Shown here one piece after another: positions 21,842 through 63,900 of a stretch of DNA of 64,000 bases. Below the pieces are notes generated by a model. The model was not told the DNA's origin. It saw only the letters and a program-made list of their open reading frames with translations, and did no database searches. Location: contig QPMI01000479.1 of NCBI GenBank assembly GCA_004431415.1, positions 1 to 64,000 on the forward strand, given 5' to 3'. Origin of the DNA: Cyanophora paradoxa CCMP329. Taxonomy: Eukaryota; Plantae; Glaucophyta. The translations under genes and the position numbers were made by a program. Numbering within the stretch: the stretch's first letter is position 1; each line of letters starts with the position of its first letter.

Positions 21842-23750
21842 CTTTAGGCGTTCGTGTGCGCACTCTGACAATATCGCGATGGGGCTCCGTCTCGAATCCA
21901 GTAAAGACAAGCTTCACAACTCTTCCAGCCGGGGCCGAAATTAACCTATGACAACTTCAAAAACGCAAGAGCGAACGCATAAAGAGAGACAAGAACAGAA
22001 AGCCGCAAATGTAGCTGACCACTCCCGGGGAGTCGCCACCAAGCCATTCTCGTAGTTTGACGCGCCAGATCCATCGTCGAATGGAACAGACAGAGAGTTG
22101 TCTGTCAAGGCGATGCTGCAAGGATTGTAGGACGTGCAAGCGAACGCGCCGCTCCCTGATTTAAGTGCCGCAGCCACCGCACATACGACCACGAACGAAT
22201 AAAGTGTGACCTGTCGACCCCTAAGCGCATGCGTATACTTACTACAAGTACTCGCCAGTGCACGTGCTGTTCGGGCTCGCGATCGCGCGCTTGTTCGGAG
22301 GCTACGCAACTGCATATGAAAGTGATGTTGCTACTGCTGCTTTATCTTGTACATTAGATCTATCTGTATATATAGGCAGCCGATACGCATGCGCATATGC
22401 ACGTTAGAGCTTGATACTGCTCGCTTTAGATGTTTAGCTATAGCCTGTAGCTGGCAGCTATGTCCGACGGTCTATCGATATCTTTCCTAGCGCTGGTCAT
22501 GAATTCGAAGCTCATGTGATGTGCGGGTTGCTGCAGCTGCGCTCAATAGCTAGGTATGCGTATACCTATATATGATAGCTGCTCGAGGGGATCATGCAAC
22601 TTGATGTAAGGCACGCGCAGACCGGTACCGGACCGTCGGCCGCGGACAGCTGCAGCGCGTGCTCAGTGTATCTACAATAAGCAGCTGGCACTGCCTGGCA
22701 GTACCTGGCAGAGGCTGGCACTGCCTGCTGCCAGGCTGCTGGCACAGTCACTGAGTGGCCCAGTGGCCCAGCGGCACAATAGCCTAGTTGCCTAGTACTA
22801 GGCTAGTAGCCAGTACCGTGGTAGTACGGTGGTACTCAATGTACTCAGGCTGCACGATCTGCCGGCGCCAGCTGCAACTTAAGCCTGCAAGCCTAGGCTG
22901 CACGCCAGTACTAGTGCACGGTCTGCACCGTCACTGTACCGTGCAACATCAATGATCAGTATTAATGCTGCCGCACCGTGGCACTGCGCATGCGCAGTGC
23001 CGCGCCGCGGCGTGTGCGGCGTGCTCTACTAGGCTACCGTCCTCTACGTACTGTTCGGTAGTACAGACTGTACAGTGCTACACTGCACACTGCCGCAGTG
23101 CCGCCAGTGCGGACTCACTGCGGAGGCTTGCAATTGCTACCGTAGTACTACTATACTAGTACAGTAGTAGTACTACCGGTCTAGTACCGGACGTTACTAA
23201 GTTAGAGCTTGATACCGTAGTACTGCGCGCCCGCGGCCGCCGCGCCCGGGCCGGGCCCCGGCCCGGGGGCCGGCGGGGGCCGGCCCGGCCGGGGCCGGCG
23301 GGCCGCGCCGGCGGCCGCCGCCGGCGGCCGGCCGGGCCGCGCGGCCCCGCGGGCCCGCGCGCGGGCGCGGCGGGGCGCCGAGCGCGTGCCACGGTGCTGG
23401 CCCAGCCCAGTGGCACTGTCACGCCGTGACGTGCACGTGCACCGTGGCACTGCGCAGTGCGCACTGCGCACTGCGGCAGTGCGCCGCGGCGGCTGCCAGT
23501 GCCTCGCCGAGTCGGCCGGGCTCGGGCTCGGTCTCGGGCTCGGAGCCTCAGGGCCTCGGACAGAGTCGGACTCTGGCCCGGGACTCTGGGAGTCTGGGCC
23601 GGGAGTCTGTCTCTGGGACTCCGGGAGCCTCCGAGCCTGTCCGAGAGTCGGAGGTCGTTAACGTTCGAGGCTCTAACATTCATGCGCGGTACGTACCTAC
23701 TACCTCGATTGGTGCTTAAGTACGTACATGCCGATTCGGGACCCGAAATA

Positions 23751-23989
23751 CCGTGTAACACTTAAGTAATGCGGTCCCAAATTAATGCGTTTTGCCAGCG
23801 GAAAACGCATTAATTTGGGACCGCATTAATATCGAAACGCTAAGAAACTGCCGTATGTACCCCCTTACAGCAGCCAATGTTTTTAAAAGGCTTCAAAACG
23901 CATTAATTCGGTACCGCATTAATATCCATTGTCGGGGTCGGGGTCCAAAAACGCATTAATTTCTGGCGCATTAATTAAGTGTTACACGG
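23751..23989. mobile_element. Tc1/mariner (pogo/Tc2-like) MITE, copy 1
   Basis: TIR CCGTGTAACACTTAA...TTAAGTGTTACACGG with TA on both sides; internal GCATTAAT palindromic repeats. Confidence 0.85.
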
Positions 23990-24061
23990 TATCGCCGAGT
24001 CGAGTCGCGAATCGCGATATATATCGATTCGCAATATTAATCGATCCAACGAATTCGAATA

Positions 24062-24354
24062 CCGTAGAACACTTAATTAATACCGGGGGGAATACCGGGG
24101 GCGCACACTTAATTAATGCGCCCCCTAATTAATTAATGCGTTTTCCGCTGGCCGGCAAAACGCATTAATTTGGGGGCGCATTAATATCGAAACCCTAAGA
24201 AAATGCTGTATGTACCCCCCCTACAGCAGCCAAAAAAAGCTTAAAAACGCAATAATTCGGGGGCGCATGATTATTACTCATACGAGGCCGGCCCGGGGTC
24301 CTGGTTGATCCAAAAACGCATTAATATCGGGCGCATTAAATAAGTGTTTTACGG
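24062..24354. mobile_element. Tc1/mariner MITE, copy 2 (diverged)
   Basis: TA|CCGTAGAACACTTAA...TAAGTGTTTTACGG; the interior is colinear with copy 1 (GCATTAATATCGAAAC, GTATGTACCCCC, TACAGCAGCCAA). Confidence 0.8.
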
Positions 24355-25849
24355 TGCTTACTGGCCGGGCCATGGGCCGGCATTGGCCGGGGAATTTGGC
24401 CCGGCAAGCGCACACGGCCCGGCAGTGGGCCCGGCAGGGCCGGCACTCAGTAACTGGCCCGGCAGTGGCCGGCACTGGCCCGGCAGTGGCCGGCAGTGCC
24501 CGACACTGGCACTGCGCACTGCGCAGCTCGCGGCAGCTGTCTGCGGGCCAGACTGCGGCGGCAGAGCCTCGGAGGCTAGAGTCGGAGCTCCGAGGCTCGG
24601 AGACTGTCCGAGTCCTGGGCCTCTGGCCACTGTACGTGGCCAGGGCCGCGCGCGGGCCCAGCCGCCCACACGGGCCAGGGCTCGCCGGCTCGGCCCGAGT
24701 CGGAGGCCAGGGTACCATATATGCATAGTAACTGGCAAGCCGCTGGCAAGCCCGCTGAATTTTCAGGGCCGCCTAGCGGCTAGGGCCAGCCCCGGTGCAA
24801 GCTTTCGAAATTTTGGGCCAGCCCCGGTGCAAGCTTCTAGCCCTAGCCCCGCTTCTAGCCCCGACGGCCAGTGCCCTATAGCTACCTGGGCCAAACGTTA
24901 ACTTGAGAAAATCGCGACTCGGCGACTCGCCACTCTGAGACTCTGAGTCGCGACTCCGACTCGCGAGTCACCGACTCACCGCCGAGTCGGCGCCGACTCG
25001 GCGACTCATGATCACCGGTAGCCTGGCGGTAGGCTGCGGCGGTAGCGCACTGCGGCAGGCGCCGCACTGCGGCAGGCTGCGCAGCCCGGAGCCCACGGCC
25101 GGGGTGACGGCCCGGCCCGGGGGGGGGGGGGGGGGGGGGGGGGCGCTACGCGTACGGTACTGCCAACTTCCGAAGTTCAAAACAGTGCCGAGCAGTGCCA
25201 AGTCACGTGCACTGCCAACTTGTGCCAAGTGCCAACTGCCATTGCCAGGCTGCCTGAGTCTGCAGAGCAGCAGCCTATATATGCCAGCAGGAGCATCGAG
25301 GTCGGACCGGTGCAGCCGCCGCGCAGCCGCTGATCACGAGCGTATCCGAGCGTAGTGCGATACGAAGATGACAGCATATATATACACGCAAAAAGTGCGA
25401 GCTCTGTCTTGCGTGCATACATAAACAGATATTGAAGCTTCGAGTTGTAATCAGTAGCCTGATCGATGCGCGGCGTACACGTATATTTGCAGTAGACGCA
25501 TATCGATATTAGTGCAGCGCTTGCAATTTCGCGAGCACGCAACCGTGTGTATATGAGGCGAGCTCGAGCTACGAGCTGCGAGGGCTCGAGCACGTTATCG
25601 GCCGCGAAGAAGCCCTTCAGGCATATGCATAGAAGTATAAGCTTCAGTTCAGCAGCTATATGCGTCGCATTTCTTGGTGTATGCGCATCTTCTGCATTCA
25701 ACGGTGCGCACGGTGCCCACTAAGCCATTCAGAGATATCGATGGACCAATCTATAGCTTATCTCTAAATGTATATATAGCTAGCGCGTGCAATCGCAAAA
25801 AAGAAACATATATCGAGGAGACATATAAATCTCTCCGAATCACGTCGAC

Positions 25850-29789: not shown

Positions 29790-32700
29790 TCAGGTCGCTA
29801 CTCAAACAAGACGGGCGTTATCAGTAACGTCGAAGCGCCGCTGTGCCCAGCAGGGACCTTTTCAACTGGCGGAGCAACCTTCTGCACAGGTAATGATCAG
29901 ATCTAGAGCCGTGAAGAAGGGTAGCCTCTCGCGCAAACGTCAACCGCGGCTCCCGCAGTATGCCCCCTAGGCTCGTACTCTAGGGAAGGGGCGAGCTCCT
30001 GTACCGGTCCGTCTATTGGGTGTCCCCTCGAATGCGCGCCCAGCTGTTTACGCAACGTGTCGCTTTTCGATGTCGATGCTCTGCAGAGTGTCCACAGGTG
30101 CTTTGCAATTCAAATAATTGAATTCAAGCTGCTTCCGACTTTGTGTTGATAATTGCTTCCGCAGAATTCATTCGCAACGGAGGCCGGCAAGCCCTGCACT
30201 CCATGGTGCGCCCCTCTTGGTTTGCATCGAGATGGCTCCACTGTCTGCCTGAACCAAGCCATGGGGTTCTCGCGATCGTCCGCAGCCCCCCGAACGCATA
30301 TACCCCCACGGCCGCTTGGACCTCCCCTTGCTCTTCGTGCGACGCCGGCTACTACCTCCCGTACACCGGGGCGACGCTCTGCATGCTCTGCCCCCCCACG
30401 ACGTGGAGCCCCCCTGGAGCCCTGGGCTCGTGCAACTTCTGTGAGCGCGCGCTGTCTGTTTGCGCCCCAGACTCGCTCGCCGTTATTGACGTCCGACGCG
30501 CCGCAAATTCGAAGGCCCACAGGGCGAAGTCCCTTCGTACGACGGCTCGCGTTGCGAGAATTGGTGCGCCGACAAATCGGTCGAACGCGAACAGAGTATT
30601 ATGCGAAGCCGCTCTCCCTTTGACTGCCAGCTGCCGAACTAATTTCTTAATAATTAATAATCTCTGCGCAGCCCCGTTGGCTACTTCCAACCTGCCAACA
30701 ATACTGCATGCCGTTTGTGTCCCATTAACACCTACTCGAGAGCCGGCGCTTTCGGAGAGTGTACACCCTGCCCCAAGTGCGCGTGTTTTAATTTCTGAAT
30801 TCTGTTTCCACGCGATTTGTAGGTGCAGAATTTAATCCCATGCCATCTCCAGGGGCCACGCTAGCGTCGATGACCACTCCGAGTGTCGGCCCTGCTTGCC
30901 AGGATATTTCCTAGTAGACGACGTGTGCGCGCGCTGCCGAGGCAACTCTATCGCGCCTGCCATGGCCGCCGCAAGTTGCGACGCCTGTCCCGTCGGCTCC
31001 GTCGCGGATGAATCGAAAACCTCTTGCGTCGACTGCCCGCCTGGAACGTACTTTTCTGCGAACACGACGACCTGCAACCGGTGACGACCCTCTAAATCTT
31101 GCTGCTAGATCCTCCAAGTTGGGAGTTAACTTCTCAGCAGTTGTCCGCTGAACTACATCTCAAGTCTGCCGCGCTCCTTGACTTGCGAGCCGTGCCCCCC
31201 TGGATATATCAGCACGTCAGATTTCCAGGTGCGGCTCCGAACTAAGAGCTCTTGCCAATGATCGGCCCGCTTGAGCTTATATATCCATGACAAAACCATA
31301 CGGGGATAGACATGTATCGCCTGCGGAGTGGGCAGCTATCGGACGGAAGCAATGGCCTTGTGCACCCCTGTGCCGTCTGGAAGCGTGGCGTTAGCCGGTA
31401 GCGCGAACTACACGGAGTGCGAGCCCGGCTCTGTACCTTCCATTTCCAAGATGGAATGTCTGCCTTGCGCCGCGGGTGCGCACTTTTGAGAATTGTTTCT
31501 GAGAAGGATAAGCGTGAGGCCGGCCGACGCGTTTCGCTTTTCAGGCATGTTCCAGATAGGCGAGCGTTGCGAGAGGTGCGCACATAGATATTCGCCGCAC
31601 TTTTGCGAGCAGTTTCAACATAACACTGATGGCGTCACGGCGTTCGAACCGTCCAGGTGTCCCATCAATTCCGTGAGCGGTTCGGCGGGAGCGACTGCGT
31701 GCACGCCCTGCAAGAATGGTACCGTTGCGGCCTCGGATTCGCAGGTATGTCGGCCTCTCTATTTTGCTTCTTCTGAGTTTGCTGTGCTGGCTCTGATCGC
31801 GAGTCTTCGCGATCGCACAGACATGCAACGAGTGCCGCCCAGGCACGTACGATGCTGGTGGCGTCTGCGAAAGGTTCGCGACGCTCTTTACTTTCAATTT
31901 CGGTTTTTGTTTCTCCGCGCGATGACCGCTCGATTGCTCGCAACGTCCAGATGTCCTTTGAATCACGTATCAAGCCTGCCAGCCTCCACAGCGTGCACGC
32001 CCTGCCCGGAGGGGTCTGTCTCGGCGACGGACTCGCAGACCTGCGTGAAATGTGGCACAGGTTTGCGAATGTAGACCCACATTTCCATCCGAAATCGGTC
32101 GGAATTCGAGGCTTGCGCAGGGTCGTACCGTTCAAGCAACATGTCGAGCTGCATGCCCGTCCCCGACCGGACCGTCGCGCTCCAGGGCTCTGCTTTGTAC
32201 ACAAACTGCTCCGCCGGGTGGGTTGCCAACATCGCGCGGAGTGAATGCGTGCAGTGCCAGGCGGGTGAGCATGCCACAGCACTTTTCTTTGCATGTGCGC
32301 ACTGACGCCACTTTGCTTGGGGTTGGAATCAAGGCACATATCAAACGGGCGACACGTGCGAGCGGTGCCCCGTGCTGATGTACTCTCCCGCAAGTGCGAG
32401 CGTCCAGTGCTTGCCCTGCGCTGTGGGCACGGTCCCCGCGGACGACCAGCAGTCTTGCATTTCGTGTCCCTCTGGTGCGTTGGGTTGGAAAATTCTAAAA
32501 GCTTGGCTTCGCTGGTAGATCTTGAAACGCAATTAATCGCGAGAGCAGGAACGTACCGGGGACCTGGGGACTTGGCGTGCGTCAACGTACCGAACCGCGC
32601 GGTGGCATTGCCGAAGTCATCGAACTTCACCGTCTGCCCCGCCGGCTCGGTCCCGGACACGGCGCGCGCTCAGTGCATACAATGCCTCTCGGGATCCTAC

Positions 32701-35700
32701 GACGCCGGAAGCACGTGCGAGCGGTGCGTTTAATATCTTTAGTGGCGCCGGCTTTGTGAAAACAACGTGTGCCCGTCACTTTAGGTGTCCGATGAATTTT
32801 GTGTCTGGGTTTCCGGGCGCGACGGAGTGCACAGCATGCCGGGAGGGCACCGTGGCTGCGACGGACTCACAGACCTGCATCGATTGCAGTCCAGGCGCGT
32901 TTTAAACCTAAGCATTTCCCCTTTTGACGGGGAAGTTGCAACGTTAGCGCTAACCCCTCAAGTACAGGAACCTACCGCTCTTTCAGCATGACATCTTGCA
33001 TGCCTGTGCCAGAGCGGAGCGTGGCTCTTCAGGCATCTTCCATGTTTGAACGCTGCCAAGACGTGCGGTCTCGAGAAAATTGCACCTTTAATCCCGCTGT
33101 TGACAACAGTCACATGTGCACAGGGCTACATTCCGGCCGTTGGCAAGAGCGTCTGCCAACCGTGCCCGAAAGGTGACGATTGACACATTGCAGCTTTCAC
33201 TCGGCGCTGTACATGTGTCGTTTTTAAAATCCGTTTGCAGGCACTTTTCAGCGGGCTGAGTCGTGCGAGTACTGTCCCACCAACTACGTAGCGTCTACTG
33301 CAGGAAGCAGCGCTTGCACTGCTTGCCAGCGTGCGTCCGTAACAAATTCATTTTGCTTGCGGCTGAAGGCGTTGATCTGGCAGCTGGCTATGTTTCTTCT
33401 ACGGACAGCCAAACCTGCATTCGTGCGTTCACCTTGAAGACCTGCATTCGTGCGATCGCGCGCGAACTAGCACTATTACTGATTCTCATTCAGCGTGCAT
33501 GAGCGGCACCTATCGATCCGCCGACATGGTCAACTGCGTCTCCGTACCTCTTGGCGCCATAGCGCAGTCCGGTGCGCGGCTCTATAATCTATCGGTGCCT
33601 GTATGCCTTTCTCATGGGGCCACTGCAGCGAGCTCGAGCTACATCGTATGCGCCACCGGCACAGTGCCGAATCCGACAGGCGACGAGTGCATGCCATGCG
33701 GAAAGGGGGCCTACGAGAGCAACCGTGTGTGTCGGCCCTGCGGAGGTTACCGGATCGCCCCGTCGCCTGGGTCCTTTTTCGAATCTTTGATCTTATATTA
33801 ATATGTGTGCAGGAAACACTTTCAATCCGGACGTCGCCGCAACTTCCTGTCAGCCGTGGTCTGTTTCCCAGCTTTAATCCCTTTATCATGGAGCGGCGCT
33901 CCAAACCCACAAACTGAAAAAGAGCTCTCAGCCCTGCTGGAAGCGTGGCGAGCCCGAACAAAGAGAGCTGCGACTATTGTTTGCCAGGTCACCGATCAGA
34001 CCGAACCCAGACGCTAGCCAGTGGCTGCAGCGCTTCCACTGACAAATGTAACGCGTCGCATTCACAGGATTCTATCGCTCTGCCACTATGGGCGAGTGCG
34101 CCTTCTGCCCCAACGGTGCATACAGCTCTGGAGGCGCTGAACGCTGCCGGTGCAATCCCAAACTGCCGATCAGTTTTCTCCGATCTCCTGCAATAGTAAC
34201 AGGAATCCATTCGCAGCCCATGCGATGCGGGGTACGTGTCGACGCCTGACCGGACGGGCTGCGAGCCTTGCAAGGTCCATGCTCATTTGTGGAGCCTTGA
34301 ATTTCTGCTCTGACGCTGCCCAACATTTACAATTCGTTCATTCGCGATCTCAAAGGCGGGGTTCTACGAGCGGGACCGGAATTGCTACGAGTGCCCCGCA
34401 AATGCCGTGACACCAGAAACGGGGGCGACCACGTGCGCTCACGGCATAATATCCGATATTCTCGGTATCCGTTAAGGCTCGCGATCGGGGCAGGTGCACT
34501 GTTTGTCCGGCTGGTCACGTTGCAAGCCAAGACCGGCAGAACTGTATCGTGCGCCCGCACACGCGCGCGCCCTCGTCGACACTGGCGCTCGCGCCCAGCT
34601 GATCGTCGCGCGTCTCATCCCAGCCGTGCTCTCAAGGCACCTTCCGAACTCAGAACATGACATCCTGCCTTCTGGCGAGCGCATGGTTTTCAAGCCTTTA
34701 AAGCTCTGCGCCGTGCCAGCTCTGACACTGGCACGCATTAATATTCCAGTGCCCCTTCCGCACCTACACGCCTGCAGCGGGGGCGACGAGCTGCACTCTT
34801 TGGTCGGCGCCATCGCGCTCTTTCGCCGGCGTTAGTTGCAATTCATTTTTCTGACAAAGTGCGCCGGTCAGTCCAAGAGGGACTCAGTCTTCGGACGATC
34901 GAACGGAGTGCCGGTTCGTCATATATTTGTTGCGTGAACTTCAGCATCGCCTGATCACTTCCGCCTGCAGCGTCTGCCCGCGTGGCACGTACGAGGACGA
35001 CGGGTCCTGCTGGTCCTGCCCCAGTGTTCGTTGATGCTTCCCACTCTGCTCCTGACAACGTTTGCTTTTGCTGACCCGCCCCGGCGCCGGCGCCGAGCAG
35101 GGGACCGTTGCGCCCGTGGCGCAGTCATCTTCGTGCGATCAGTGCCCCAACGGGACAATATCGAGCGGCGACCGGACGCGCTGCATCGACTGTACGCCGG
35201 GCACTTTTCAGCCTCAGGATCAAGATCTCTGCCTCTCCTGCAGACCGGTCTGCTTCGAATTCAGTTCTGTAACCGCTGCAGTTGTAATGGATATCTGAGA
35301 TGCAATGCACACGCGCAGGGCACGTGGGCGCCTGCAAAAGCCCACGGGGCTTGCAAGCTGTGTCCGATCGGCAGCACGGCTTCCAGCGACAGGCAAGCCA
35401 TTTTTCGCAACGCTTTTGCGACATTCGTTCGAATTCGAATTTTATTTATGCGAGCTGACGATTATTTTGTGTAGCACGCGCTGTATTCCGTGCGACCCTG
35501 GCACGTTCATGCGGAACGGGAGCGCCTTTTGCGAGCAGGCGGGTCGTTGCTGTAATATCGAACTGAACATTCGATTGTGATGTAACTCGCGTGCCGTTTG
35601 CAGTGCGGGCCCAACACGTACGCTTCCGAAGCGGGCCAAGCATTTGCCTGCAAACCATGCGAGGCTGGCTACACCAGTGCCCCCGACTACAGAAGCTGCC

Positions 35701-38700
35701 AAGTGCGTATTCGCATTGCGTCCTGAACTTCTCGGGCTGTCCTAAAGTCTCGCAGCTCTGCCCACCCGGCACGTCTCGAAATGGCTCCATGCAGAGCTGC
35801 CTCTCGTGCCCTCCGGTTAGTGGACGCGCAGGTCGATGTCCCTCCTGCTGGGCTCTCTCACAGCTCAAGCTCACAGGGCACCCATGCGAGAGAATACGGC
35901 TCCATCGAGTGCACTGCCTGGTGCGAAACTCGCATACACTCGATGGAACCCGTCTCGCAAAGCTCATGTTCAAATTCGCTACACCAGCCCGGCAGGGTCT
36001 ATTCCCAGAGAAGACGGGTGCGCGTCCTGCGCCGAGCAAACAAACAAAACAATCCTTTAATCTCTCCTTTCCGACGCTTGCTCTTAACATTTTCTCCCGC
36101 TTTCAACAGGATTGATTGCGTAGGTTTGTGGTTTTCAGCATCTTCAGCACGTCTGCATTGAACTGACAAGGCTCTCGATCGCAGTTTGCGGGCCGGGTCG
36201 GGTTCCCCACGCAGGGCGGGTCTGCCGCCCGTGTTCTGCAAATCAGATCGCTCCGTCTCCGGGAATGGAGTCGTGCGAGGCGCGCTCCGGCTGTGCTCTG
36301 TGAACTGCCGATTCCCGTTCCCCGGCTCAAAACCACACAGGCATGCCCGGCTGGTCACATCGCGGACCCAGGGCGCGAAACCTGCATTGCCTGCCAAGCG
36401 GGGACTTACGAGTCTGGCGGCGAGTGTCTGCGGTGCGCGCACGGGTTTAATTATTTTCTTCCTCGTCCTTCGGTCGTGAGTAGATCTGACGAATGCACGC
36501 AGGTGCGCGAAAAACTTCGTGTCAGGCGCCGCTGCGAAGAATTGCACGGGCTGCCGCCCGGGCACCGTCAGCCAGTCGGGCGTCGAGTGCACGAACTGCC
36601 CGCCCGGATCGTTCCGCAACGCTTCCATGCTCGTGCGCCCGCCCGCGTCCGCCCGCCTGCGAGCCGGCGTCGCCCTTGCGAACTGTTTTCTTTTTTTCGC
36701 GCAGGTGTGCGCCCCCTGTCCGTTCGGAACGTACGCGTCGGCGTTCGGCAGCTTCGCGTGCGAGCCGTGCCCCGCCGGCAAGCTCTGCCCAGTCGGTGCG
36801 CGTCTCGACGAGTCTGGCGTGGCGAGGAGGAGCCTATCTTACGTTTCTGGGGGCAGCTGCCTCGGAGCCGATCGATCTCGCGTTGAGGAGCAGCAGCACG
36901 TTGGAGGAGATAGCGGCGCCGGAAAACGCTGCGGCCACGACCTTCCGCCGCTGGCTGCTGGGCGAGGCGCCTGCCGCGAGCTCAAAGAGCAGGCGGCACC
37001 TGGCGAGCTCGAGCGCCGGCAAGGCCGGGCCGCTGACGAGCCAGGACCTCGTGTTCGGTCAGAACAACGTGACCGTCACGCAGTCGACCGTCGTGAACGA
37101 GGACGAGGCGCTGCAGCGCGTGAACCGGATGTTCCTCTTCATCCTCGCCGGCGTCGCCGGCGTGGCGCTCCTCGTCGGCCTCTGCATCTTCGCGTACCTC
37201 CGCCTCGCCCCCGACTCCTCGCCGGCCGCCCGCCTGGCCCGCGTCCGGCGCATCAAGCGCCTGCACCTGTTCTACCGAGGCGCGCCCCGCTCGGCTGTCG
37301 CTGTCCAGCTTACGTCAATGCGTGGTCTGATGCGGGTCGACGAGCAGAGCCGGAGCCTCCGAAGGCACCGGAACCGTCTGCCAACGACGTCGACGTCGAC
37401 CACACGGAGGAGGACGCCCCGAAACCGGACCCGCTGAAGGGCCGCTCTGTGCCGGGAGCGTATTTCACGATCGTCGGAGTCGCTGGCGTGGCCGTTGCAG
37501 GTGAGCAGGTTTCCTTTGCGACCTCCGCGCCGTTTACAAGCGCGCCCTCGGCCAGTTATGTTCGTCGTGGTACAAGCCGGCGTCGCAAACTACAACATCG
37601 TCCAGAGTCTGTGCGTTCTGATAGTCTAGACATCAAATTACATTCTTCAAATGAAACTATCGGTACCATCGAATACCCTGAACTGCCATAGGAACCCCGG
37701 GACATCGCCGTCGGCGACATCGATCCGGGGCACCTTCGCCGTCGCCGCCACCTTCCGCGGCTACTCCGGCGACTGCGACGAGAACGACGCGAATTTCAAC
37801 AGCTCCGGATTCGGCGGACAGCAGGTCTGTCAGATATCTACTTCGATGACGTCGACGACAAGCCAGACTTTGCTGACCTCGAGCTCGCCAAATTCGAACG
37901 CGTGCGCCCGCAGGCCATCAAAGTGAACAAGACGAGCGCCGCGAGCCGCGTCTGCACGTGCGTGCCCGCGTTTCCCCTTCGATCGCCGCGTCTGATTTCG
38001 CGTATGCAGCGTCGCGTGGAGCTGCACGAACTGCCGCATCACGGCTGATGACGGCGCGTACCTGCGGCTGTACCTCACGTACCGTCTCGCTATGGCCGTC
38101 TCCATTAGCTACGCCATGAAGGTGCTTACTTCAATTTAAATTAAATCAAGCATTGCCCTTTCATCGGGCCTGCGAACCGATGCCGCGATCCGGGGCAGAT
38201 TCCCGAGTACATTACAGTGAACGGCATGGTCACGCCGTCGGCCGACGACGCTGTGTTCCGCGGCTCGCGACCTCTCGTCGTCCCCGTCGATCTCGTATGC
38301 AATTCTTGAGGCTTAAGCTAATATCAGAGAATGCGAACCTAGGCAGAGAAGAGAATATATCAGCTTAAGCTAATAATATATCCGATTAAATATATATTGA
38401 CCTGCGTCGCGCCCTCTCGTCGCCGCAGACGCCGATGCACTTCATGTCGGAGGAGGACGGCTCCGCGCGCTACTTTGCCGCCGTCTCCTCCTCGGACACG
38501 GAGGCGGGCCAGCGCACCCTCACCGACTTCGTGCGCCCGGCGTCCGGCCGCGGCCGACGCCGCCAGCCGCCATCCGTCGAGGCTATTTATATGTGAGCTG
38601 AAGTCGTGCGGCTTTAATTTCGCCGCGCAGGCGCTGTGCCAGCCGGAGCGGGCCATGTCCGAGTGCCCTGATGAGATGGTCTCGTTTGGCGTCAACTTCC

Positions 38701-39835
38701 GTGTCTCTCAGGCAAGCCGTAAGATTCCAATCATGAACTCCTGCAGCAATTCGTGGCGCAGTCGACCCTGACGGGTCGCGCGCGCAGGTCTACCTCCTAG
38801 TCGATAGGAAGGTCCGCTCGACGGTGCTGGACACCATCGCCAACATCATGTCGCTCGCCTCGGCCGCCTTTGGCGCCGGGGGGCAGGCCCTCGCCGCCTT
38901 CCTCGCAGTCCGAGCGCTCGTCTGGGTGAGCGGACCTTTCAATGTAACGGCGTTGCGATTGCACCGCGATCTTTATGGAGCTGATGCCGGGGCCGCCGCA
39001 GCGCAAGAGGCCGATCATCTTAGACCCGGAGGACGACGCGCAGCTGCAGGAGGTCGCGCCCAAGGGCGATCGGAAGGCCTCGGATTCCCCGAAATTGCCC
39101 CCTGCGTTGAGCTCCGCGTCGGCGCGGCAGCATCCACGGAAAAGTGCTAGCCCTGATCATGAGCCACCGCCAGCTCCATCAGCCCCCGCACCGGCAACGG
39201 CCGTCAGGCGGGCATCTCTGTCCCTCTTGGGACCTCTCTCGCCCAATCGCGAGCGGAAGTCTGCGCTTGCCGCGCCCACCCCCGCCGAACCCTCTCGAGA
39301 TCTTCCGTCCCCATCCTCCCGCGATCGCGACAAACAGGGATCTGCACCAAAGCAACGGGCGAAATCGCCCTCTCCAGTGCCCTCATCGACTGCCTCCTCG
39401 CGATCGCTATCCTTCAAGCCGCCCTTCCCCGCCCCGTTGACCGCCCACGACGGGCCTCCGAAGCCGACGGCAACTGCTCCCAAAGCCCCATCGGTATCGG
39501 AGGCCGCGCCTCCCCGGCAGCGTTCAGTCCATATGGCTGCACCCGCCTCGGCTGCGCATGCCGCGCATGCCGCCAGGCCATCCGGATCCCCAGTGTCCTT
39601 CGTGAGCCAGCTGGCCGGAGCCGCGTCGCCTCTCCAGCGGTCTCGGTACCTGACCGCCGAGCTCGGGGCGCGGATGCATATGGGGCTGACGGGCCCACCC
39701 ACGTTCTCCAACCTCCCCGCGCTGACGGCTGCGGCGGGCCCAAGCGCCGCCTCGCCCCGGAGCAGGGCGACTGCGATCCGTAGCGATCCTGAGGGCGAGG
39801 GCGGGGCCCCCGGCGGCTTGGAAGACCAGTTCTAA
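29790..39835 (+). CDS. Large multi-exon host membrane protein with GCC2/GCC3 (ephrin-receptor-like/TNFR-like) Cys-rich repeats (start approximate)
   Basis: Dozens of short exons with CxxCPxGTY-type repeats (e.g. CDACPVGSVADESKTSCVDCPPGTY). Hydrophobic segments near 37130-37200, 37460-37500 and 38830-38925. Pro/Ser/Ala-rich tail ending at TAA 39835. Confidence 0.8.
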
Positions 39836-44100: not shown

Positions 44101-44527
44101 TGCGGGCCAGGTCAGCGAGCTGAGAGGCGAGTTCTTGGGCGTAGCGAGCACCGGGAGGGAGGGGGTGGCGGCCCTGCAGGGCGAGGCGGGGTAGACTCAA
44201 GCACAGTTGGGGAGCGCGGGAGGGCTGGGCGGTCGGGGGAGGGTGGTGGGGAGTCTATAGCGAGGGTAGGCAGGGTGCCGCCAGTGGAGACCGGGGGGCG
44301 GCGTGGCGGTCGGGGGCGCCCCGGGAAGGTCGGTGGGGGTCTGAGGGCCGGGAGGGCAGGGCCACAGCATATAGAGTCGAGGGTGACGGACCCGTAGCAG
44401 AGGCTGAGGGCAATATATTCACGGTATCTGCGGAGCGCAGCATTGTCGACCTGAATGTAGGCTGGGGGGCGGGGCAAGTCCGACGGGGCAAGTGCTGAGG
44501 AGCGACTGAGTAGGTCAGCTGTGAGGA
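41122..44527 (-). mobile_element. 5'-truncated non-LTR retrotransposon (RNase H end, Cys/His knuckle, poly-A, 18-bp TSD)
   Basis: Direct repeat GTGCACGGGCGGCATTTC at 41104-41121 and 44528-44545; T9 at 41122-41130. Minus-strand peptides HNDAVDKLAK, CPFC...EDFIHIFTC and IWRTRCARNHAWELRQGIT (across frameshifts). Confidence 0.85.
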
Positions 44528-44686: not shown

Positions 44687-45057
44687 ACCCTTCCTCTTCA
44701 ATACGCTCACGCACGTGTTCCGATGTAAATAATTCGCGCATGTGCTGTCTGTGTGCACGAAATCGCAGCTGCAGAATCTATCTTCGAGCTGCTGCAATTA
44801 TCGCAAGCGCGGGTCATTCAGGGCTGAGCTCGGGAAAATAATGAATGGGCCTCTATTTTAAGTTCCAGGGATCTCGGCTTTTAGTCGTGCACTTCAGGCA
44901 TGCTTGCGGGATTCCTGTCTTTTCTGTCTATCTTCTTTCTTCCACTCTCTGTCTTCAGCGCTCTTTCTTCTTACTGTCGTCAGCGCTCTGTTGGTGCGCG
45001 AAGATTCATTCAAGTGGACCGCCCATAGCTGACCTCTGTTCATGATTGCTACCGCAG

Positions 45058-45373
45058 GCCTAGGCCTGCGATCGAGGACCTCCACATGGGAGTCCTCAAG
45101 CGCCTCCGTGACGCCGGCCTCGCGGATATCGAAATTCAAGACCTTGTCTACCAGATGCGCGGCGGGAGCGAGCAGCGCGCCAGCCGCGTGGCTCTGCGGG
45201 CGCTCGAGGCGGCGGGCCGCCTCACCATGCTCTCGCAGGACGGCTCTCTTCAGGACCGGCGCCGCTGGCTGCCGCTCACCCCCATGGCCGACTTCCGCCC
45301 CGACCCCCTCCAGAAGGCCTGGATCGCCTATGTTTACGGCGAGCCCTGTGCAGACAGCACCATCATCTTTTAG
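45058..45373 (+). CDS. Terminal exon of an unknown host gene
   Basis: CAG acceptor at 45057, then a GC3-rich open frame to TAG. Confidence 0.35.
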
Positions 45374-48144
45374 CCAGCTGTTCAGGGTTAGCGGTAGGCC
45401 GCGCGAACACAGTTGATGCGCAGCGTTTTTTGCTCCAGAACAATCTTTCTTATACAGTGCGCTGAATCTGGCCTTTCATTAAGGCTTTTCTTTATTCGGT
45501 TTGATCGCAGCGTCTGCTTAATGTGCCTTTTCTATTTTTTTCAATCATATATACTCTGTGTCTATCTTTACACTTCAACCTGCCGCGCGCGCCGGGCTGG
45601 GGTCGATCTAGATCTGCCCCGTGCATGTGCGTGCCACTACGACTGTTTCATTAGATCCCGGTTCCCCCCTTGCACCCCCGGCGCGAGAATCGCGGCCGGG
45701 CCCCTAGTATATATAGTGTGTGCGGCCGGTAATTCACCAAAACTGAAATAGTTTGCGGAAGGCGCATGTCCGGAATCCGGGGCTCAGCGGCTCTTGCCTC
45801 GCCAATTGGAACGCGACAGAGCTCGAGGGGGGCCCGGGCCCCGGAGGGTGAAGCTTAAGAAATCCGCGAACGTGACCAGCGAATTTAAGCTGATTCCAGC
45901 CGCGCTCAAGCTTATGATCATGATCACAATCGTACTTTATTTACATTTGCTAAGGGGCTTATGTTTCTGATATACAATACGAATATTCCATGGCCCATGG
46001 CGCGATTGTGAATAGCTCCGGATCCGGATCCATATATGCATGCGAAGTCATTGCACATAGTAGAGGTCCTTGATCATGGCCGCGGCGGACGCCACGCGCC
46101 GCGGCGCCGGGTCGCCCTCCTCCCAGCTTAGGACTTTCGTGAAGGGGTGCTGCGCGGCGCAACCGTCGTGATCAGCTGCAGCTGCAGCGCGGGTTGCTAA
46201 AATACAGGCTGCATCAAAACTCTGAAATTAAGATCGTCGGATACGTGTACTGCGCACGGAGGTATCTAAGGGTCGCTGGCGTGATCATGATCAGCGCGGG
46301 TGGAGATTCTAAGAGATCAAGAGCTAGATAATGAAATTTAAGTCTTGGCAATAGCTATAGCGAGCAAGAAACTCGGAGCGATTCGAAGAAAAGGCGGGCC
46401 GCATCCAAGACTTCAATCACCGCGGGGTCGCCGAGGGCGTCGCTGGCCTAGGGGCACCTAGGGGTAGCTGGCGTGAACATGATTAGCGCGCGCGGAAAAC
46501 GTAAAATCGAAGCATTTTAAGACTTCTTGACAATGGATATATATGGCGAGCAAGAAATTCGAAGCGACTCGAAAACAAGGGAGGCCGCGATCACGACCGG
46601 GGGCACCGCGGGGTCGCCGAGGGCATCGCTGGCCTGGCGGAGGACGTCCCCCATCGTCGTGCTCGGCTGCAGCACCTGCGGGCTCGAAACGTTAACTCAG
46701 CAAACATTTAAAGATCAAATTGAATGCGCTTGCGAGGTTCGAGTTCGATCGCGGGGCAATTTACAATTTCTAGATTTATACAACGTTATATAATTAGAGA
46801 ACCGTCATTGAAGACCATGATCACGAAGGCTCACCAGCTCGATCACGTCTTCTGGGGGTGGGGGCCCGCCGCTGGGCGGCGGGGGCCACTTGGCGAGCCC
46901 CACGAAGGTCAGCGTGATGTTAGTCTTGTTGTCGGTCACTGTGCTCGCCAGCTTGATTTTGTCCCCCACCGAAGGCCCAGCTGCAGTCGACGCCGGCGCC
47001 GGTGCGGCGCCGGCCGCTCGTGAGCTCGAGCTGACGCCCGCGCCCGCGGGCCCCGAGCCCGCGGCAACGGCTGCCGGAGACTTAGATGCAGCCGGCTCTG
47101 GCTCCGCCCGCGGCTCACATGTGCCCGCCCGCTTGGAATGGCGATCGGCAGGCGCAGACGCAGACGGGTCCTGCGTGGCCGGGGCGGGGCGCTTTTCGCC
47201 CGCGACCGTCGCCGCGCGCAGACGGCCCGATGATGACGAGGGGGCCTGCGGCTGGCCGCTGCGAGACGGCACCGTCGGCCCGGGGCCTGAGCTCGCGGGT
47301 TCCTGGATCGCAATAAAAACAGGGACGTCGCGATTAGAAAACCGGAAAACTGGAATTGCTCAGAAAGAAAGAACGAGGAGGGGCAGTGGCATGGGCGCAC
47401 TGCATGCCGCGGCCGGCTCCGGGCCCCATGCACGTTGAAGGTGGGGCTGGAGGGCTGCTGGCCATGGTCGATGTCGCGGCCGCGGCCCGAGCCCGAGGCC
47501 GGCGCCCCGGCGCTAGAGCCGGAGCCGGCGCCCATCGCCAGCGCCTCGCCTCCCGCGATCGCGACCGCAACCGCCGGCGCCGGCGCCGGCGCCTCCGAAT
47601 CCGGATCCGCGGGGGCCCGGCGCTCCCGGCCGTCGACGTCGACGTCGACGTCTTCACCGCCGCTGCGAACCTGCAGGACGAATTCGAATTCGAAAGTGCT
47701 TATGATTGCACTGTGAGAGGAGGAGCGATATCTGCAGCTCGAACCTCGTTCTCCGGCTCGACTCCGGAATTCGAACTGACCTTGTCGTGCCCCTGCGCGA
47801 AAAGTTATCAAACAATTCCGAATTCGAAGAGCGCAGCACTGGTACTTAAAGAGGCAAAAGCAAGGACGTTGGCCGATGAATTCGAATCGGACCTCGAGCT
47901 TGCCAGCGAACTGGTCGCGGAGGATCGGGAGGAGCTGCTCGTGCAGGGCGCCCCACGACTCGTTGAAGAGCGCCTCGTCCGCCTGGGTCCAGCCGCCCCC
48001 GGGCCCGCCCCCGCCGAGGCGGTCCCGTGGGATGCGGCCCGCGCAGCTCCCGCCCGCGAAGATCTTGGAGTACCACGGCTCCCGCATCAGCTCTGCGAGC
48101 GGCGCCGGCGCCATTGTAAAGTTAATATATATTGTGTAAAACAA

Positions 48145-48195
48145 GTGCCGTGGTGTATCAATGCGACGTCCACTTAAGCTTTTGCGGAAACAACA
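48145..48195 (+). mobile_element. Solo 3'-end fragment of the same retrotransposon family
   Basis: 48145-48175 is the exact reverse complement of 41135-41165 and is followed by an A-rich remnant. Confidence 0.7.
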
Positions 48196-51100
48196 ATGTT
48201 TTAATACCGTGCAAGCTTTTCGATCCGTGAGCGCTCACCGGCCAGCGCCCTCGCGTTCCCGAACTTGCTCTTGAATTGCCGCGACCCCCATTTGTTGCAG
48301 GCAGCCAAGAAATTCTCGTTTCCTACACCGGCGAGAAGGTAGCAGGCTTCGGCGTGCTCCGCCTCCTGAACACGGGACATGAGATGTGATAATTAGACCT
48401 GAAGCTTATAATTCTAAGCCCACCTCCTGCGACTCGAATTTTCCAATGTACTTCTCGAGTGGCTTCTTGGTCTCCGGATTCTTGCCATCGTTCGGGAAGC
48501 CGCGGACGAGCATTCTCTGTGCGCGCATACGTACATGAACGCGCAGCGCCAATATCAATATTAATAATATTTATATTCGCTGCCGAGTGGTCCCAGCCGC
48601 CCAGGATCACCTTCTGGACTCGGGCCTCCTTCTTGGGCGCCTTGTTCGAAGGGTCCCGAGCTCCCGCAGCTGCAGCAGCAGCTGTATGTGCAGTACCAGT
48701 GGAAGGCTTCGAATGCTTCCGAGCCCGAGGCCGCGCCCTCGCCCTCTTTCCCGTGGCCCCGCTTGGACCCTGCGAGAAGAGCTGATTACATAATTATAAA
48801 CTATAAAGAATATAATTAGCGCAATTGCGATCCTTGCTGAGCTTGGGATCGATATCCGTTAACGTTGTCGCGGCGCACCTTTTCCCAGTCGGAGTCGCCA
48901 TCGTCGACAGAGCTCTCCGCGCCACTTGCGCCGTCCGAGTCGTGCGCGATGTCGTCCGGCGCGACCGGTGCTGCGCGCGCGCCCGCTTGCGCATGCGGCT
49001 GCAGATTCTGTAATTAGAGCGCCATGAATGTAAAGCTGAAGGCTCGCGCTGCGCACTGCGTTGTCGGGACCGAGCTCGAGCTCGTTCTGCGGCCGCGCCA
49101 CGCGCGAGCCCGAGGAATCACCGCGTCATTGCCGGCGCCGCGCGCATGCGCATTAGGCCGCGAGCGCGTCCAACCTGATCATCCCCGTTGGAATGTAGGC
49201 TCCCCGCCATGCGCATCGACGCCATCGACGCCATATCGCGGCTTCCCGAATGTCTGCACTCGGGCGAAAATTAGAGCAATCGTGCGCGCGCGTTTGTTGG
49301 CCGGCGCCTGGCGCGCACGCGTTCGTGTCTTCCAGGCGCGGTTCTTCGCACTATCGGCGAGCGGAGGCGCACCGATTATTATCCCCCCTAGCAATGGCCA
49401 GAGCTCTCTAGAGCTTAATTTCGATCTTGCGGATCGAGCTCAAGAGGCCTAATTACAGTTTGGAGCGCTCGCGCGCGAGCTCGAGGTCTATAATTAACAC
49501 GTTAAGCTAGGACCGCGTACCGCGAAAACTCGAGTCCGTCTAGAGGGGATGTTATAGAGAGCTCGAGGAAACAGCGATGAACGAGGGGCGATAATTATAA
49601 TTATAAAACGGGGTCGCGCCTCGCGATCGCTCACTCGTCACCGCGCGCCGGCGCCGCACCGCGGCGGCTCCTCGACGTCAAGTCAACCACGCTTACGGTA
49701 TGAAGATCGACATCTAGAGCGTTCTCAGACATGTGCATAATAGAAGGGCGCCGCGCGGTCCGCCGCCTCGCGCCCCCGTCGGACGTCGCGCCGGCGCCTC
49801 TATAAGACCGCGCACACGCGCGCGCGCGCGCGCGCGCGCATCCAGGGCCAATTTAGGCCAGCGCTAAATTTTAGACGCGCGCCCGAGGAGAGAGAGCGCT
49901 TCGCAACCGTTGAACAGCCCCCGGAGTCGTGTGTTCCGCGATCGCGAGCGGGCGCGCGGCGTGACCGCGGATCCTCAGAGCCTGCGCGATCCTGTCCGCG
50001 AAAGAGGGTTGATTGTGCGCTGTCTTCTCGCGCAGGAAAATGGCGTCGTCCGCGGACAAGAAGCTCAAGCTTAAGGGTCCTCGGGTCGACCAGGTTCGAC
50101 CCGCCCGCTCGAGCTCTTCCGCGCGCGCATGCATATGCAGCGACGTCGACGTCCACGTCGACGCGCGCGCGCGCGCGTCCACGGAGCTCGAGCGCTTAAT
50201 CCGTGGCGCCGGCTCGCGCGGCCGCAGAACGATCCCGATCGCGATCGCGACGGCCCCGCTCGCGATCGCACTCCCGCGGCTGCCCTCGGTCCCGGTCGCG
50301 GCCGCGGGACTCCGGTGCGTCGCGCAAGCCTCTTGCAGCTCTAACGATGTGATCGCGGCGCAAAACTCGCGGTCGCGACGCAGGTTCTGCAGCCGCAAGG
50401 GGCCGCAAGCTCCGGGCACGCGAACGTCATCGCGCAAGATTCGGATGACGGCGACGGTGGCGCAGAGCCCGAAAGCTCGGACGGCGACGGCGACTCTGAC
50501 TGGGGAAAGGTCCCTCTTCAATTTAATTTCTCGTGTGCATTTTCAACTGCAAGACGTCGACCGGGTCCATCCCGCAGGGTCCGAGCGCGGCCACGGGGAA
50601 GCGGGCCGGCGCCCCTTCTCAGAAGCCGTCGAGCGCGAGTTTCTCAGCTGCAGGTGACACGCGCACGAAACAGGCGCGAGTCGATACGGTAAGCTCACGC
50701 GAAGCTTAAGCTTTAAGCTCAAGTTGAACGTTAACTAGCGCCTTATATGAATTATAATGTATACGTTTACGTACATCTAGATCTGCAAGTGCTTCAAGCG
50801 TCGACGTCTAGACGGATATAGATTGCCAGCATTAATGCCAGATCTCATGCGTCCGCCGACGCCGTGAAGAATTTAGGTAGCCATCATAGGTAGCCATCAT
50901 GCCCCACGGCCGCGTCCCGACGTTGCCAGACGGCGCAAAACTGCTCGACACCAAGTGCATTGAAAAGGTTAAGACAACGGAGGTTCGATTCCATTTGCCT
51001 AAAGCCTAACTACGAATATCATGGCATGTGTTGCGTGCAGTGTGAGGACCCGGGATGATTCGGGGAATCACTAGCCTCTCGCGAGATGGCCTATTGGTAG

Positions 51101-51740
51101 AACTGCCGCCTTGACACCCCTTAGTCGTTGTTTCCCGGCCGCGCGGATTGATTCCGAAGTTATATATAGTTAGATTTTAACTTAGCCGCCCACGCGGATC
51201 AACCCGGCTGCCGTTCGCCGCGCACGCCTCTGAATTTGGTTTTTGCAGCCCACGCTGCAGCTGCAGCTGATCACGCCGGTTCCTCCGCGCAGAGCCCGTT
51301 CAAAAAGGTGCTGAGCTGGGAGGAGGGCGACCCGGCGCCGCTGCGCGTGGCGTCCACCGCCGACATGATCAAGGAGCTCTACTACGTCGACGTCGACGCC
51401 CAGTGACTGCGCCCGCAGCCGCATGTTCGCGGCATCTCACTAGGCTAGACCGGTACCGTCGACGTCGACTGCAAAATAAGGGCCGCCTGCGAAAATAAAA
51501 TTGAGGCTCTGTGAGAATTGTATTCGTAGCTGTAGGTTGTGCATGGAACTAGCTACAGCCTGGCAGATCTCCTGCATTAGTTCTTCCTGAAGATCCTTTG
51601 TATTCCTGCAATAAAAAAAATGCAGTATACAGTTGCTTGCTCCCTTGCTTTAATCCAGATATCTATCGATCAATATCGGCATCTATCCAGAATCCAAAAA
51701 GAAGCATCAACATAAATAAAGATGCAAATAAGAGCGAGCG

Positions 51741-54701: not shown

Positions 54702-54713
54702 GCCCGCAGCCGC

Positions 54714-57424: not shown

Positions 57425-57783
57425 GGGCTCGAAATCGCCCTCCGCCCCGCTGCGGGCCTAGCGCGGCGCTCGGCCCGCTCTCCCGATCCCGATCCTCTCC
57501 CCCGACCCTCGGCTCTGTAACCGCGACCCTATCCTGCGTCCCTGAACACCGAAAGACCCTTAAAAGCCCTCCAGCGCCTTCTGATCATGAGCTTTCGACT
57601 AGTGGTTCAGTGTCCGAACTATAATGAAGAAAAATGGAGCGACTAAGACAGAGTCGACGTCCGAAGGAAGAAGACCCCGGGAACTATCATGACCATGAAG
57701 CGACCGTCGGACTGAGACAGAGTCCGGAGGCCCGCTTCGGGCGTTGGGGCGGCCGGGCGGCCGGGCCGGGGCCGGGGGCCGGG

Positions 57784-60666: not shown

Positions 60667-60960
60667 CGCGTCGCGGTCATCGCAGGTGAGCGAGCCAACA
60701 GAGCAGTACTTCCCGCAGCGTGATGGCCATGCTAGCCGCGGAGCCGCGGCTGATGCGTCGCGGCCGACCGCCGGCGCGAGGGCCAGCCCGCCGATGCTGA
60801 AGCCAACCGCTCGATCAAGCATAAGGAGCGATATTTGCGCCAAGATGCTGCGGCAGAGCTGCTACTGTGCTCGTGCTTGTTGCGCGCTTCAGCGCTGACA
60901 GCGCCACCGGGACCGGTACCACGATTCCATCGATCCGCTGCGCCGAAAGCAGGTCCCACC

Positions 60961-63900
60961 TCGCGATCGCCAACCGCGCACCGCCCTCGCGGCATAAGAG
61001 CCCGAGGAAAGTTGAGCTCGGCACAGTCGGGCTCGTCCACAACGTGTATCAATCCCTCGCCTTTTACTAGAGATTGCCGTGTGTGACGAGCCATATCGAC
61101 ACTCAACATTTTTTAGCGGCCGCTCTGCGGTCTACCTTTCTTCTTGACAAATAAATGAAAATCGATTGGCCGGTGGACGAGGTTGATTGCGCTTCAAGTT
61201 GCATGCTACCGCGTGCAAAGTTGAATTGCAATTTGAGGGAGTTGCGCTTCTGTTGGCATTTGCAGGAAGCTTGAGATGAGAGCGAAAAGCTTGAGATGAG
61301 AGCGATGATGAGATGAGATGAGATGGAAGCTTGAGGGAGCGCAGCGGCCGACGATACGGCGTGCGAGTGTGAGCTCGAGGCGAGCGCTCCAGCTGAGCAT
61401 GCATTTGCAGCTCAACACACGCCTCGGCGTGTGCGGCAAGCGCCAGCGGGGAAAAGAGCGCCAGCGAGCCTGCACTTAAGCTTGCCGCGCAGCAGCCGCG
61501 GGCCGCTTCGGACTTCTCCGCCCTCGAGCTGCTTCCGGATCCAGACGAGCTGCTGAAGCGCGTCGTCGGCTTTCTCGGCATGCGGGAGGCGTGGGAAGTT
61601 TGCCGCCTCCCGCTTGTCAGCCGACGGATGCGCGACGCGCTCGCGTCCATCGAGTTCGACGCGCTCGTCCTTCGCGGGCAGCGCGGCGGAGTCTCGCGGT
61701 ACCGCGACGTGCCCGAGGCGGAGTCGACGTCGCGTGCAGTCGGGCGCCGTGCGGCTCGCAGGCGGCGCGCTGGAAATCGATTTCTGGCGCTCGACATTCT
61801 ATGAGGTCGACGTCGGGTGCGCGCTGCCCCGTCCTCGACGGCCATTCGGGAGTCTTTGAGCGCCCCCCCTGGCCTGCGCATGCGCGCGCAGGTCTGTGAC
61901 GGACGCCGCGGCGTGCCCAAGGCGGAGTTCCGGTCGTGGGCGCAGCGCGTGCGGTCGGGCGCCCTGCGGCTTGCGGCGGGCGGGGCGCTGGAGATCGATT
62001 TGTGGCACCCGCCGCAATATGAGGCCGGGTGCGCGCTGCCCCGTCTTCCCGTTCGGGCGTCTTTGAGCGCCCCCCTGCACGCGCAGGTCTGTCGCGGGCG
62101 CCGACAGCATCCAGCCGTCGTTCTGGGTGCCGGAGCCGGCCAGGCCCTTCCTCGCGTTCGCCTCCTCGCTGCAGGGGCTCCGCCGCTTCGTCGGGTGCGG
62201 ACGCGGCGTCTGCCGCAGTGCGCCGCACGCCGCCTTGGCTGATATCTGCACAGGGATGCGGTTGCCCGCGAAGTGAGGAGCGGGGCAGCCGGCACGAAGG
62301 CGCTAGTGCTGTGTAAGTCCTACCACCCTCTCCCCCCCCGCCCTCCAGCTCCGCTGAGCCCACCCCCGCAGGCTTCCCCCCCCCCCCCAGATCTACGGTG
62401 ATCTTGAGTACTACGGGCGTGGCAGCGCTAGCTCCACTCTACGCGGTACCCCGCCGTATCGCCAAAATCGTACTCGGTACCCTGCCGTACCCCGCCCCTC
62501 CCCGCGCCCCTCTGACGCCCCCCGGGCCGCAGCTGCAGGAGAGCCTGCGTACCCTGGCCCTGGAAGGGGGCAGCCAGCATTGGCAGACCATCACTACAGC
62601 TGTGCAGTCCCCCCCCCTTCCCCCTTCCCCCTTCTCTCCCCTTTCCCACCCCCTCCTCCCTCCTCGCCTCCTTCCTTCCCCCCCCCCCCCCCCCCCCCCT
62701 TTCGCCTCCTTCTTCCTCCCCCCCCCCCCCAACCCCCTTCGCCTCCTTTTTCCTCCCCCCCCCCATCTCCCAGAAACACCCCAGAAAGTTCCCGCCCCTC
62801 CCTCCCCTTCTTGAGCTCTGCCCCCTTCTTGAGCTCCCCTCGCCCCCTCCCCCCCCTCCCCCCCTTCCCCCCCCCCCCCGGTCTCCGGAGCGGCCTGGAG
62901 CCCCGTGCCTGGAGCGCCTGTCGGTCCACTTCACGAGCTACACGCCCGCGCGGCTCACTTCCTCCCTCGCCACCCTCGCCGCGGCCCTCCTGTCCGCCCC
63001 CCCCCCCCCCCCCCCTGCTACTCGCCGTCTCCTTCCCGGGCTCTGTACCCCCCCGCGACCGCTTTTGAAGCCACCCAAACCGCCGTACTCCGCGGCCGCT
63101 CTGCGAAGGTGGGTACCGGGTCTCAATCTTCTCCGTACCCTCCGCACCTCTCTGAACGCCGTACCCCAGGACACCCTGGAGGGGTACGACCGGGAGGCGG
63201 ACGCACCTCACTGTTCGGGAGAGCGCGGCGCTGATGGAGGGCATTGCTGACCCTCGCGGCCCTGGCGCCGCTGACGTCGATGGCGGCGCGCCCCGCCCCG
63301 GCCCCCAGCCCCGCCCCGGCCCAGGGAGACCTTGTGCTCGCCCGGCGCCTGCGGGACGACTCGGACGGGGGAGCCATCCGCCCACTTCTTAAGCTTGGCG
63401 GCCGCTAGCGCTAGCGCTGGCGCCTCGAGAACCTGGCCCGGGCTTAAAGCTTGACCCGGCTCCGAGGCTCCATGTCGCGATCGAGCTAACGCTCATTCTT
63501 ACGATCACGAACGAGAGCTTTGCCCACGTGCTACAATGGTTTTGGGACGCATGCTGCTCCCTAGAGACTCCTACAAGACTCCGGAATGATGGGCAGGGCT
63601 CGAGATCGAGAGAGGGGCACTGCGGCAGTGCACGTTGGGGGAGCGCGATCGCGATTCGAATTCGCGATCGGCGGCGGCGAATTCGAATAGGCTTCAACGT
63701 CAACGTCGACTAGCCCGACCTAGCCCGACTAGCCAACGTCGGGGCAGATAGAAGAGAGCGATCCGATGGTCATGATTATGGGACCCTGACCGGGTCGCGA
63801 TCGCCAACCGCGCACCGCCCTCGCGGCATAAGAGCCCGAGGAAAGTTGAGCTCGGCACAGTCGGGCTCGTCCACAACGTGTATCAATCCCTCGCCTTTTA

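Follow-up and report, generated by a model that had tools for sequence, protein, structure and literature searches.

Inverted trimer triplications in the DNA of Cyanophora paradoxa: candidate excision scars of a transposon with a 3-bp target duplication

The stretch of DNA analysed here, called the window below, comprises 64,000 nucleotides of contig QPMI01000479.1 of the glaucophyte Cyanophora paradoxa CCMP329, and its host part (positions 22430-63720, about 41,000 bases) is rich in short patterns in which a base triplet is followed by its own reverse complement and then by itself once more, written X-rc(X)-X and referred to as inverted triplications. The genome of this alga measures 99.94 Mb and is described as probably haploid with little repeat expansion (PMC6704402; this and the other papers cited below are drawn on for individual passages), and its repeats are methylated (PMC12344493, PMC12695648). 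Proteins of the window matched EukProt gene models, and all 10 family members whose accessions were looked up belong to Cyanophora paradoxa. The segments against which the triplications were counted are as follows.

1..21841, no strand: integrated AT-rich DNA virus with D5_N, patatin, Peptidase_S74 and AdoMet_dc; internal control
29931..39835, plus strand: Cys-rich repeat gene (rough model); events counted per exon and intron class
41122..44527, minus strand: retroelement resembling those without long terminal repeats (non-LTR-like), with an 18-bp target duplication; internal control, 1 event against 0.5 expected
45700..51700, no strand: the stretch of highest density, with 66 events where 1.4 are expected; made up of fragments of orphan or decayed genes

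An event was defined as an X-rc(X)-X match, with overlapping windows merged and dinucleotide repeats removed, a filter that drops the ATA and CGC trimer classes; expectations came from a third-order Markov model, with an over-fitted fifth-order model as a second background. A preliminary description, made from the letters alone, had proposed that such patterns pepper the host DNA and are rare in the virus. The enrichment in the host is confirmed, with 175 merged events of unit 3 against 22.5±4.3 expected, an excess that survives the fifth-order background (60±10), and every example quoted in that description (at 23657, 46017, 46173, 47632, 47680, 49592 and 50702) is present in the sequence. 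The virus (1-21845), as also anticipated, is not enriched, its 8 unit-3 events standing against about 5 (4.8-5.0) expected. At 21559-21841 the virus ends with an inverted repeat pair, and its AT-rich DNA is CpG-depleted (observed/expected 0.40).

The geometry of the signal is narrow: the unit is 3 only, the palindromes are even-centred, and both flanking copies are whole. Units of 2, 4, 5, 6, 7 and 8 bases gave 204, 5, 2, 1, 1 and 0 events in the host part against 192, 2.6, 0, 0, 0 and 0 expected, so that units of 4-8 bases account for 9 events in total, and pairs of palindrome centres have a sharp maximum at lag 3, with 255 there compared with about 70 when the lag is longer. When footprint templates were counted, with motifs of fewer than three different bases excluded, the exact +6 template XYZ-zyx-XYZ (zyx being the reverse complement of XYZ) was the sole tested shape to stand out, at 172 against 13.7 (12.5x). 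The plain +3 template XYZ-XYZ lay at chance (268 against 263, where an excess below about 45 could be masked by the background), as did +4 and +5 (0.8-1.1x), and +7 to +9 came to 1-7 cases each. A 'complement' control was raised in the same test (62 against 13.8), which we read as coming from arrays with equal first and third bases, caught in a shifted window. Almost any trimer serves, 29 of the 32 classes being in use and AAA absent, with a weak C-NNN-G bias in the flanking bases and a slight preference for a fourth base of microhomology (116/324 against 97.8, z 2.3). Triplications with one mismatch are also raised (236 against 119; 237 against 149), as expected of decaying older events, and short-range clustering is not significant (22 of 178 gaps at most 20 bp, against 17±3.6).

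Density is very uneven along the window, from 0 to 11 events per kb, with approximate values of 0.5 per kb in Cys-repeat exons, 3 per kb in introns and 11 per kb in intergenic or decayed DNA, the last figure holding for both intergenic 39836-41120 and decayed 45700-51700. Within the Cys-rich gene, partitioned by our own rough gene model with six retained introns split by eye, the repeat exons hold 2 events in 3.8 kb (1.5 expected) and the introns 12 in 4.0 kb (0.8 expected). The later exons hold 9 (1.3 expected), seven of which lie in the last, low-complexity exon; this exon has thus taken up seven dipeptides, and a stop was created there in 56 of 828 simulated insertions. A mutation process would leave such a pattern if selection and residence time in the host filtered its products. 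In the densest stretch the annotated orphan gene model P0153 (50040-51403) consists largely of triplication-derived motifs (KLKLK, DVDV, ELERL, IAIA, VDVD) and had no other homologue, and an exon of this stretch matched only its own orphan gene model. Two further segments, 51800-54500 and 57700-60100, are very GC-rich, carry GTAC at 9-10 per kb against 0.5 in the Cys-gene introns, and have few triplications, 57700-60100 having none. At 51829-51976 two contigs share the depth at about half each, one equal to the window and the other with 14 substitutions and 10 gap letters, the variant contig alone being found in run X19; this may be the edge of a duplicated segment or, although the species is described as haploid, another haplotype.

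The direction of change can be taken from paralogous copies inside the window, in which some of the events appear as additions of 6 or 12 bases at a bare trimer.

45056..45067, plus strand: AGG-CCT-AGG-CCT, 6 bases of it missing from other copies of a high-copy repeat
47632..47652, plus strand: seven-unit (GTC-GAC)n array, reading VDVDVDV in an open reading frame (ORF) that also contains EFEFE
48173..48181, minus strand: AAG-CTT-AAG, in a fragment of a retroelement 3' end; exact +6 relative to the 41131 copy
51386..51400, plus strand: GTC/GAC array, +12 with a single mismatch when set beside the inverted copy 46055-46202
61534..61542, plus strand: TCC-GGA-TCC, adding PD to an F-box protein, LPDPDELL against LPD[E/D]LL in paralogues
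61806..61814, plus strand: GTC-GAC-GTC, exact +6 against an internal repeat copy near 62020
63388..63396, plus strand: CTT-AAG-CTT, +6, adding LK (PLLKLGG); LK is missing from every other paralogue covering the site
63404..63418, plus strand: five-unit GCT array, +12 against the 57400 paralogue, bringing in a stop

Both paralogue comparisons of the preliminary description held: the retroelement-end pair differs by exactly 6 bases, and the PD insertion at 61534 is missing from all 7 of the other paralogues, out of 12, that cover the site. The DNA-level calls at 61534, 63388 and 63404 were made by eye, and that at 61534 needs one extra substitution relative to its in-window paralogue. For 48173, 61806 and 63388 the empty paralogous site holds a lone trimer without any palindrome, so that no palindromic hexamer was there beforehand to be duplicated. 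The 45056 case is ambiguous with tandem duplication; the depth recorded for it in run X1 is 919 of 3400, and copies lacking the 6 bases are present in all four public runs.

Beyond the window, 17 proteins of the F-box family from several contigs yielded 26 insertions, each backed by at least three pairwise alignments, of which 15 are two residues long and 5 one residue. A triplication can encode 9 of the 15 two-residue rows against a background of 13-18%; a stricter multiple-alignment filter left 3 of 6 compatible, and the hand-pooled sites gave 6-7 of 13 (binomial p 0.018-0.004), with one Ala-rich site scored as not compatible and three sites of doubtful independence sitting in one alignment column. 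A tripeptide a-b-a test on 22 Cyanophora proteins found no excess of pairs of complementary codons (0.90 against 1.19 for other pairs) and was likely swamped by leucine-rich repeats. The claim of a genome-wide, frame-preserving process stands as far as the frame-preserving insertions go, from the paralogues, the depleted structured exons and the nearly free young inserts; its genome-wide part draws solely on the F-box paralogues of other contigs. Near the F-box genes of the window, two identical U5 small nuclear RNA genes (61023-61133 and 63857-63967) lie in a duplication, at least 206 bp in size, by which a broken F-box copy is bracketed.

We favour, with a probability of roughly 0.6, the reading that the triplications are excision scars of a putative cut-and-paste transposon with a target-site duplication (TSD) of 3 bp, hairpin flanks and microhomology joining. 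Insertion would yield XYZ-element-XYZ, and excision would close both flanks into hairpins precisely where the element ends, without the loss of a base. Opened at least 3 bases from the tip, the hairpins would leave a left end XYZ-zyx and a right end zyx-XYZ, which would anneal at the common zyx and, after fill-in, give the +6. The alternative microhomology join, at XYZ, would restore the empty site without trace, few blunt joins (+3, +4, +5) would be expected in a cell that lacks classical end joining, and repeat hits or slippage would produce +12 and +18; a cell that joins ends by microhomology alone should therefore show +6 and little else. In favour of this reading, hairpin formation on flanking DNA is well established in hAT, Transib, RAG and MULE (PMC5499845), Ac/Ds footprints combine P-nucleotide palindromes with microhomology (PMC5873905), CACTA elements make 3-bp TSDs (bioRxiv 10.1101/342816), and C. 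paradoxa is listed without Ku70 and Ku80 (PMC11936186). The class of insertion, its direction, the precise length added and the scarcity of events in young inserts and constrained exons are direct observations; since the window showed no 3-bp-TSD element, no transposase and no filled site, we infer the cause and all of the causal steps. The preliminary description had named such a transposon and a peculiar break-repair or template-switch pathway as candidate causes; the geometry favours the former, but neither an element nor a filled allele came to light.

Set against known systems, the pattern resembles the flank-hairpin footprints of Ac/Ds, other hAT elements, Transib, RAG coding joints and the MULE Muta1, which in the passages cited likewise show short P-nucleotide palindromes at the empty site and microhomology joining; here too the palindromic inserts are templated from both flanks and joined by microhomology. 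The differences are that the unit in those systems is 8, 5 or 9 bases rather than 3, that Ac palindromes are centred on a single base whereas the Cyanophora scars are even-centred with no base lost, and that those systems leave a spectrum of footprints where natural DNA here carries one dominant product at about 4 per kb, with +3, +4 and +5 at 0.8-1.1x. The scar unit of exactly 3 equals in length the target duplication of CACTA/EnSpm (CMC) elements (bioRxiv 10.1101/342816), but no filled site was seen. No element, terminal inverted repeat (TIR) or transposase of that kind was seen in the window; the pattern works like a flank-hairpin footprint but is not assignable to CACTA, because no element was found. 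CACTA/EnSpm elements have little target-sequence preference. PIF/Harbinger elements, which target TAA/TTA (TWA), were rejected, as TAA/TTA is not favoured (2 against 2.8 expected, and CTA/TAG 3 against 2.8), and so was a 7-8-7 footprint of hAT type (Ac/Ds, Hermes), with no case for a TSD of 6-9 and 0 events at unit 8. Searches of an open-access library yielded no description of the pattern in Cyanophora and no exact 3/3/3 footprint, most older subscription papers on En/Spm and Tam1 footprints lying outside its coverage.

Several points weigh against a transposon origin. A TIR-plus-TSD scan of the host part returned chance-like pairs only and no CACTA- or CACTG-ended element with a 3-bp TSD, no transposase family, CMC included, was recognized by Pfam among the 26+114 ORFs of the window, and no filled allele was seen in the window. 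If the window is typical, simple arithmetic requires about 3.7x10^5 surviving scars genome-wide. The hairpin chemistry of CACTA elements themselves enters here as general background, and the listed absence of Ku may reflect database coverage. Known footprints vary in form (128 Ds revertants showed 28 types), and the hairpins of Ac have one base at their centre, which sets them apart from the even-centred scars here (PMC5873905); the genome paper reports little repeat expansion and, in the passages cited, gives no figure for DNA transposons (PMC6704402), and one supplement of PMC12344493 contains no transposon terms. As a qualification of the general picture of insertions, in a strict catalogue of in-window paralogue indels (30 rows, 29 distinct, of lengths 1 (6), 3 (5), 4 (3), 6 (4), 12 (2) and others), 3 of the 29 are triplications, two exact and one with one mismatch. 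Triplications thus form a substantial but not dominant class of indel, and the 6-bp peak that the preliminary description proposed to look for is not dominant in this small catalogue.

Other elements of the window are recorded here in their own right. Region 22400-25300 carries another signature that looks like a scar: palindromes centred on one base and paired at a distance of 4 (41 pairs, where 2.3 are expected and the local baseline is about 15), together with 6 of the 7 exact 4-5-4 patterns, three of them the same 13-mer. Its geometry would suit either a 5-bp duplication with Ac-type hairpins or a palindromic satellite. In the same region lie two related AT-rich copies resembling miniature inverted-repeat transposable elements (23749-23991 and 24060-24355), with an 8-bp internal spacer inverted between them; the former ends in inverted arms of 26 bases with TA on either side and is presumably Tc1/mariner-like. 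The high-copy repeat at about 44990-45710, which near its end exceeds single-copy depth several hundred times, bears a coding exon with unnamed Atlas leads only, at 0.90, and a Helitron-like 3' end (a hairpin, then CTAG before T) without TSD, and was set aside. A short high-copy repeat at 51030-51134, of about 60-fold depth, had no Rfam match. A pattern made from the retroelement end had 0 matches in metagenome and viral contigs.

Of the competing explanations, the one that fares best dispenses with the transposon: a nuclease or repair enzyme would cut with a stagger of 3 bases, fill-in with hairpin formation (or snap-back synthesis) would act on the two ends, and joining by microhomology in a Ku-less cell would likewise give +6. 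In its strong form, a host-encoded pathway would turn any trimer precisely into an inverted triplication, would have done so at hundreds of thousands of sites in each genome, and would rank as a main source of two-residue insertions and of dipeptide repeats such as VDVDV, EFEFE and RDRD. Both the route and this strong form we hold possible but unlikely. The very uniform product, the near absence of sequence preference, the very high event density, the lack of an element in the window and the reported loss of Ku (PMC11936186) all speak for such a route. It demands, on the other hand, a duplication and two hairpins in one event, while the duplicated trimer comes naturally with transposition. We know of no host enzyme that does both, and snap-back products usually vary in length.

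Still less probable is a short replication template switch, in which 3 bases of the opposite strand are copied and synthesis returns 3 bases back, making a miniature of the small inverted triplications (SITs) whose duplication-inversion-duplication layout is shared by our events (PMC13334657). SITs are about 50-fold larger (median 148/160/148 bp, broad in size, with minima of 7 bp for the arms and 20 bp for the inverted part), carry a spacer of about 30 bp and are tied to loss of FEN1/Rad27, whereas the present pattern is 3/3/3 without spacer. Short four-point template switches also leave a reverse-complement copy of adjacent DNA, yet they are defined with point 4 at or after point 1, and our pattern needs point 4 before point 1, a class unobserved in the human-chimp data of the passages cited (PMC5453318). 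Together with the absence of priming homology at empty sites such as 48173 and of any tail at 4-10 beside the sharp size 3 in this window, the far larger, spaced SITs and the unseen switch order leave this explanation with a low rating.

Ordinary 6-mer slippage at palindromic hexamers, aided by composition bias, is a very improbable origin and is largely refuted as such. Among 179 events, arrays of 3, 4, 5, 6 and 7 units number 151, 17, 9, 0 and 2, odd numbers being favoured, and duplication of a hexamer palindrome cannot yield three units; moreover, the empty paralogous sites hold a single trimer, and the excess persists under the fifth-order model. Slippage may nevertheless have enlarged existing arrays: five- and seven-unit arrays exceed independent re-hits (9+2 against 3.2 expected), so that slippage or repeat targeting contributes to them, non-palindromic 6-bp tandems are raised (31 against 7.5), and even-unit arrays such as 45056 fit either route. 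As for an assembly or base-calling artefact, we give it practically no weight: the comparison used contigs rather than raw reads, from runs possibly of the same strain, but 45687-48174 and about 48150-51057 match the contigs of all four public runs letter for letter (0 differences, 0 gaps), so that the sequence is not an assembly product, and the density follows exons, introns and young inserts.

The scar is of note for its precision, its density and what it does to proteins. Should the transposon reading be true, every excision in this Ku-less alga would end in the same invariable scar, which keeps the reading frame. The genome would then hold a countable tally of earlier transposition events, would show in a natural setting how hairpins are opened and ends joined by microhomology, and would give an initial hint of how a 3-bp-TSD superfamily cuts DNA. 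The long-standing idea that protein diversity can come from footprints would also become testable at scale, as illustrated by the F-box family, in which two-residue insertions outnumber one-residue insertions by 15 to 5 among the 26. Without an element, the triplications would instead represent a kind of mutation that is new.

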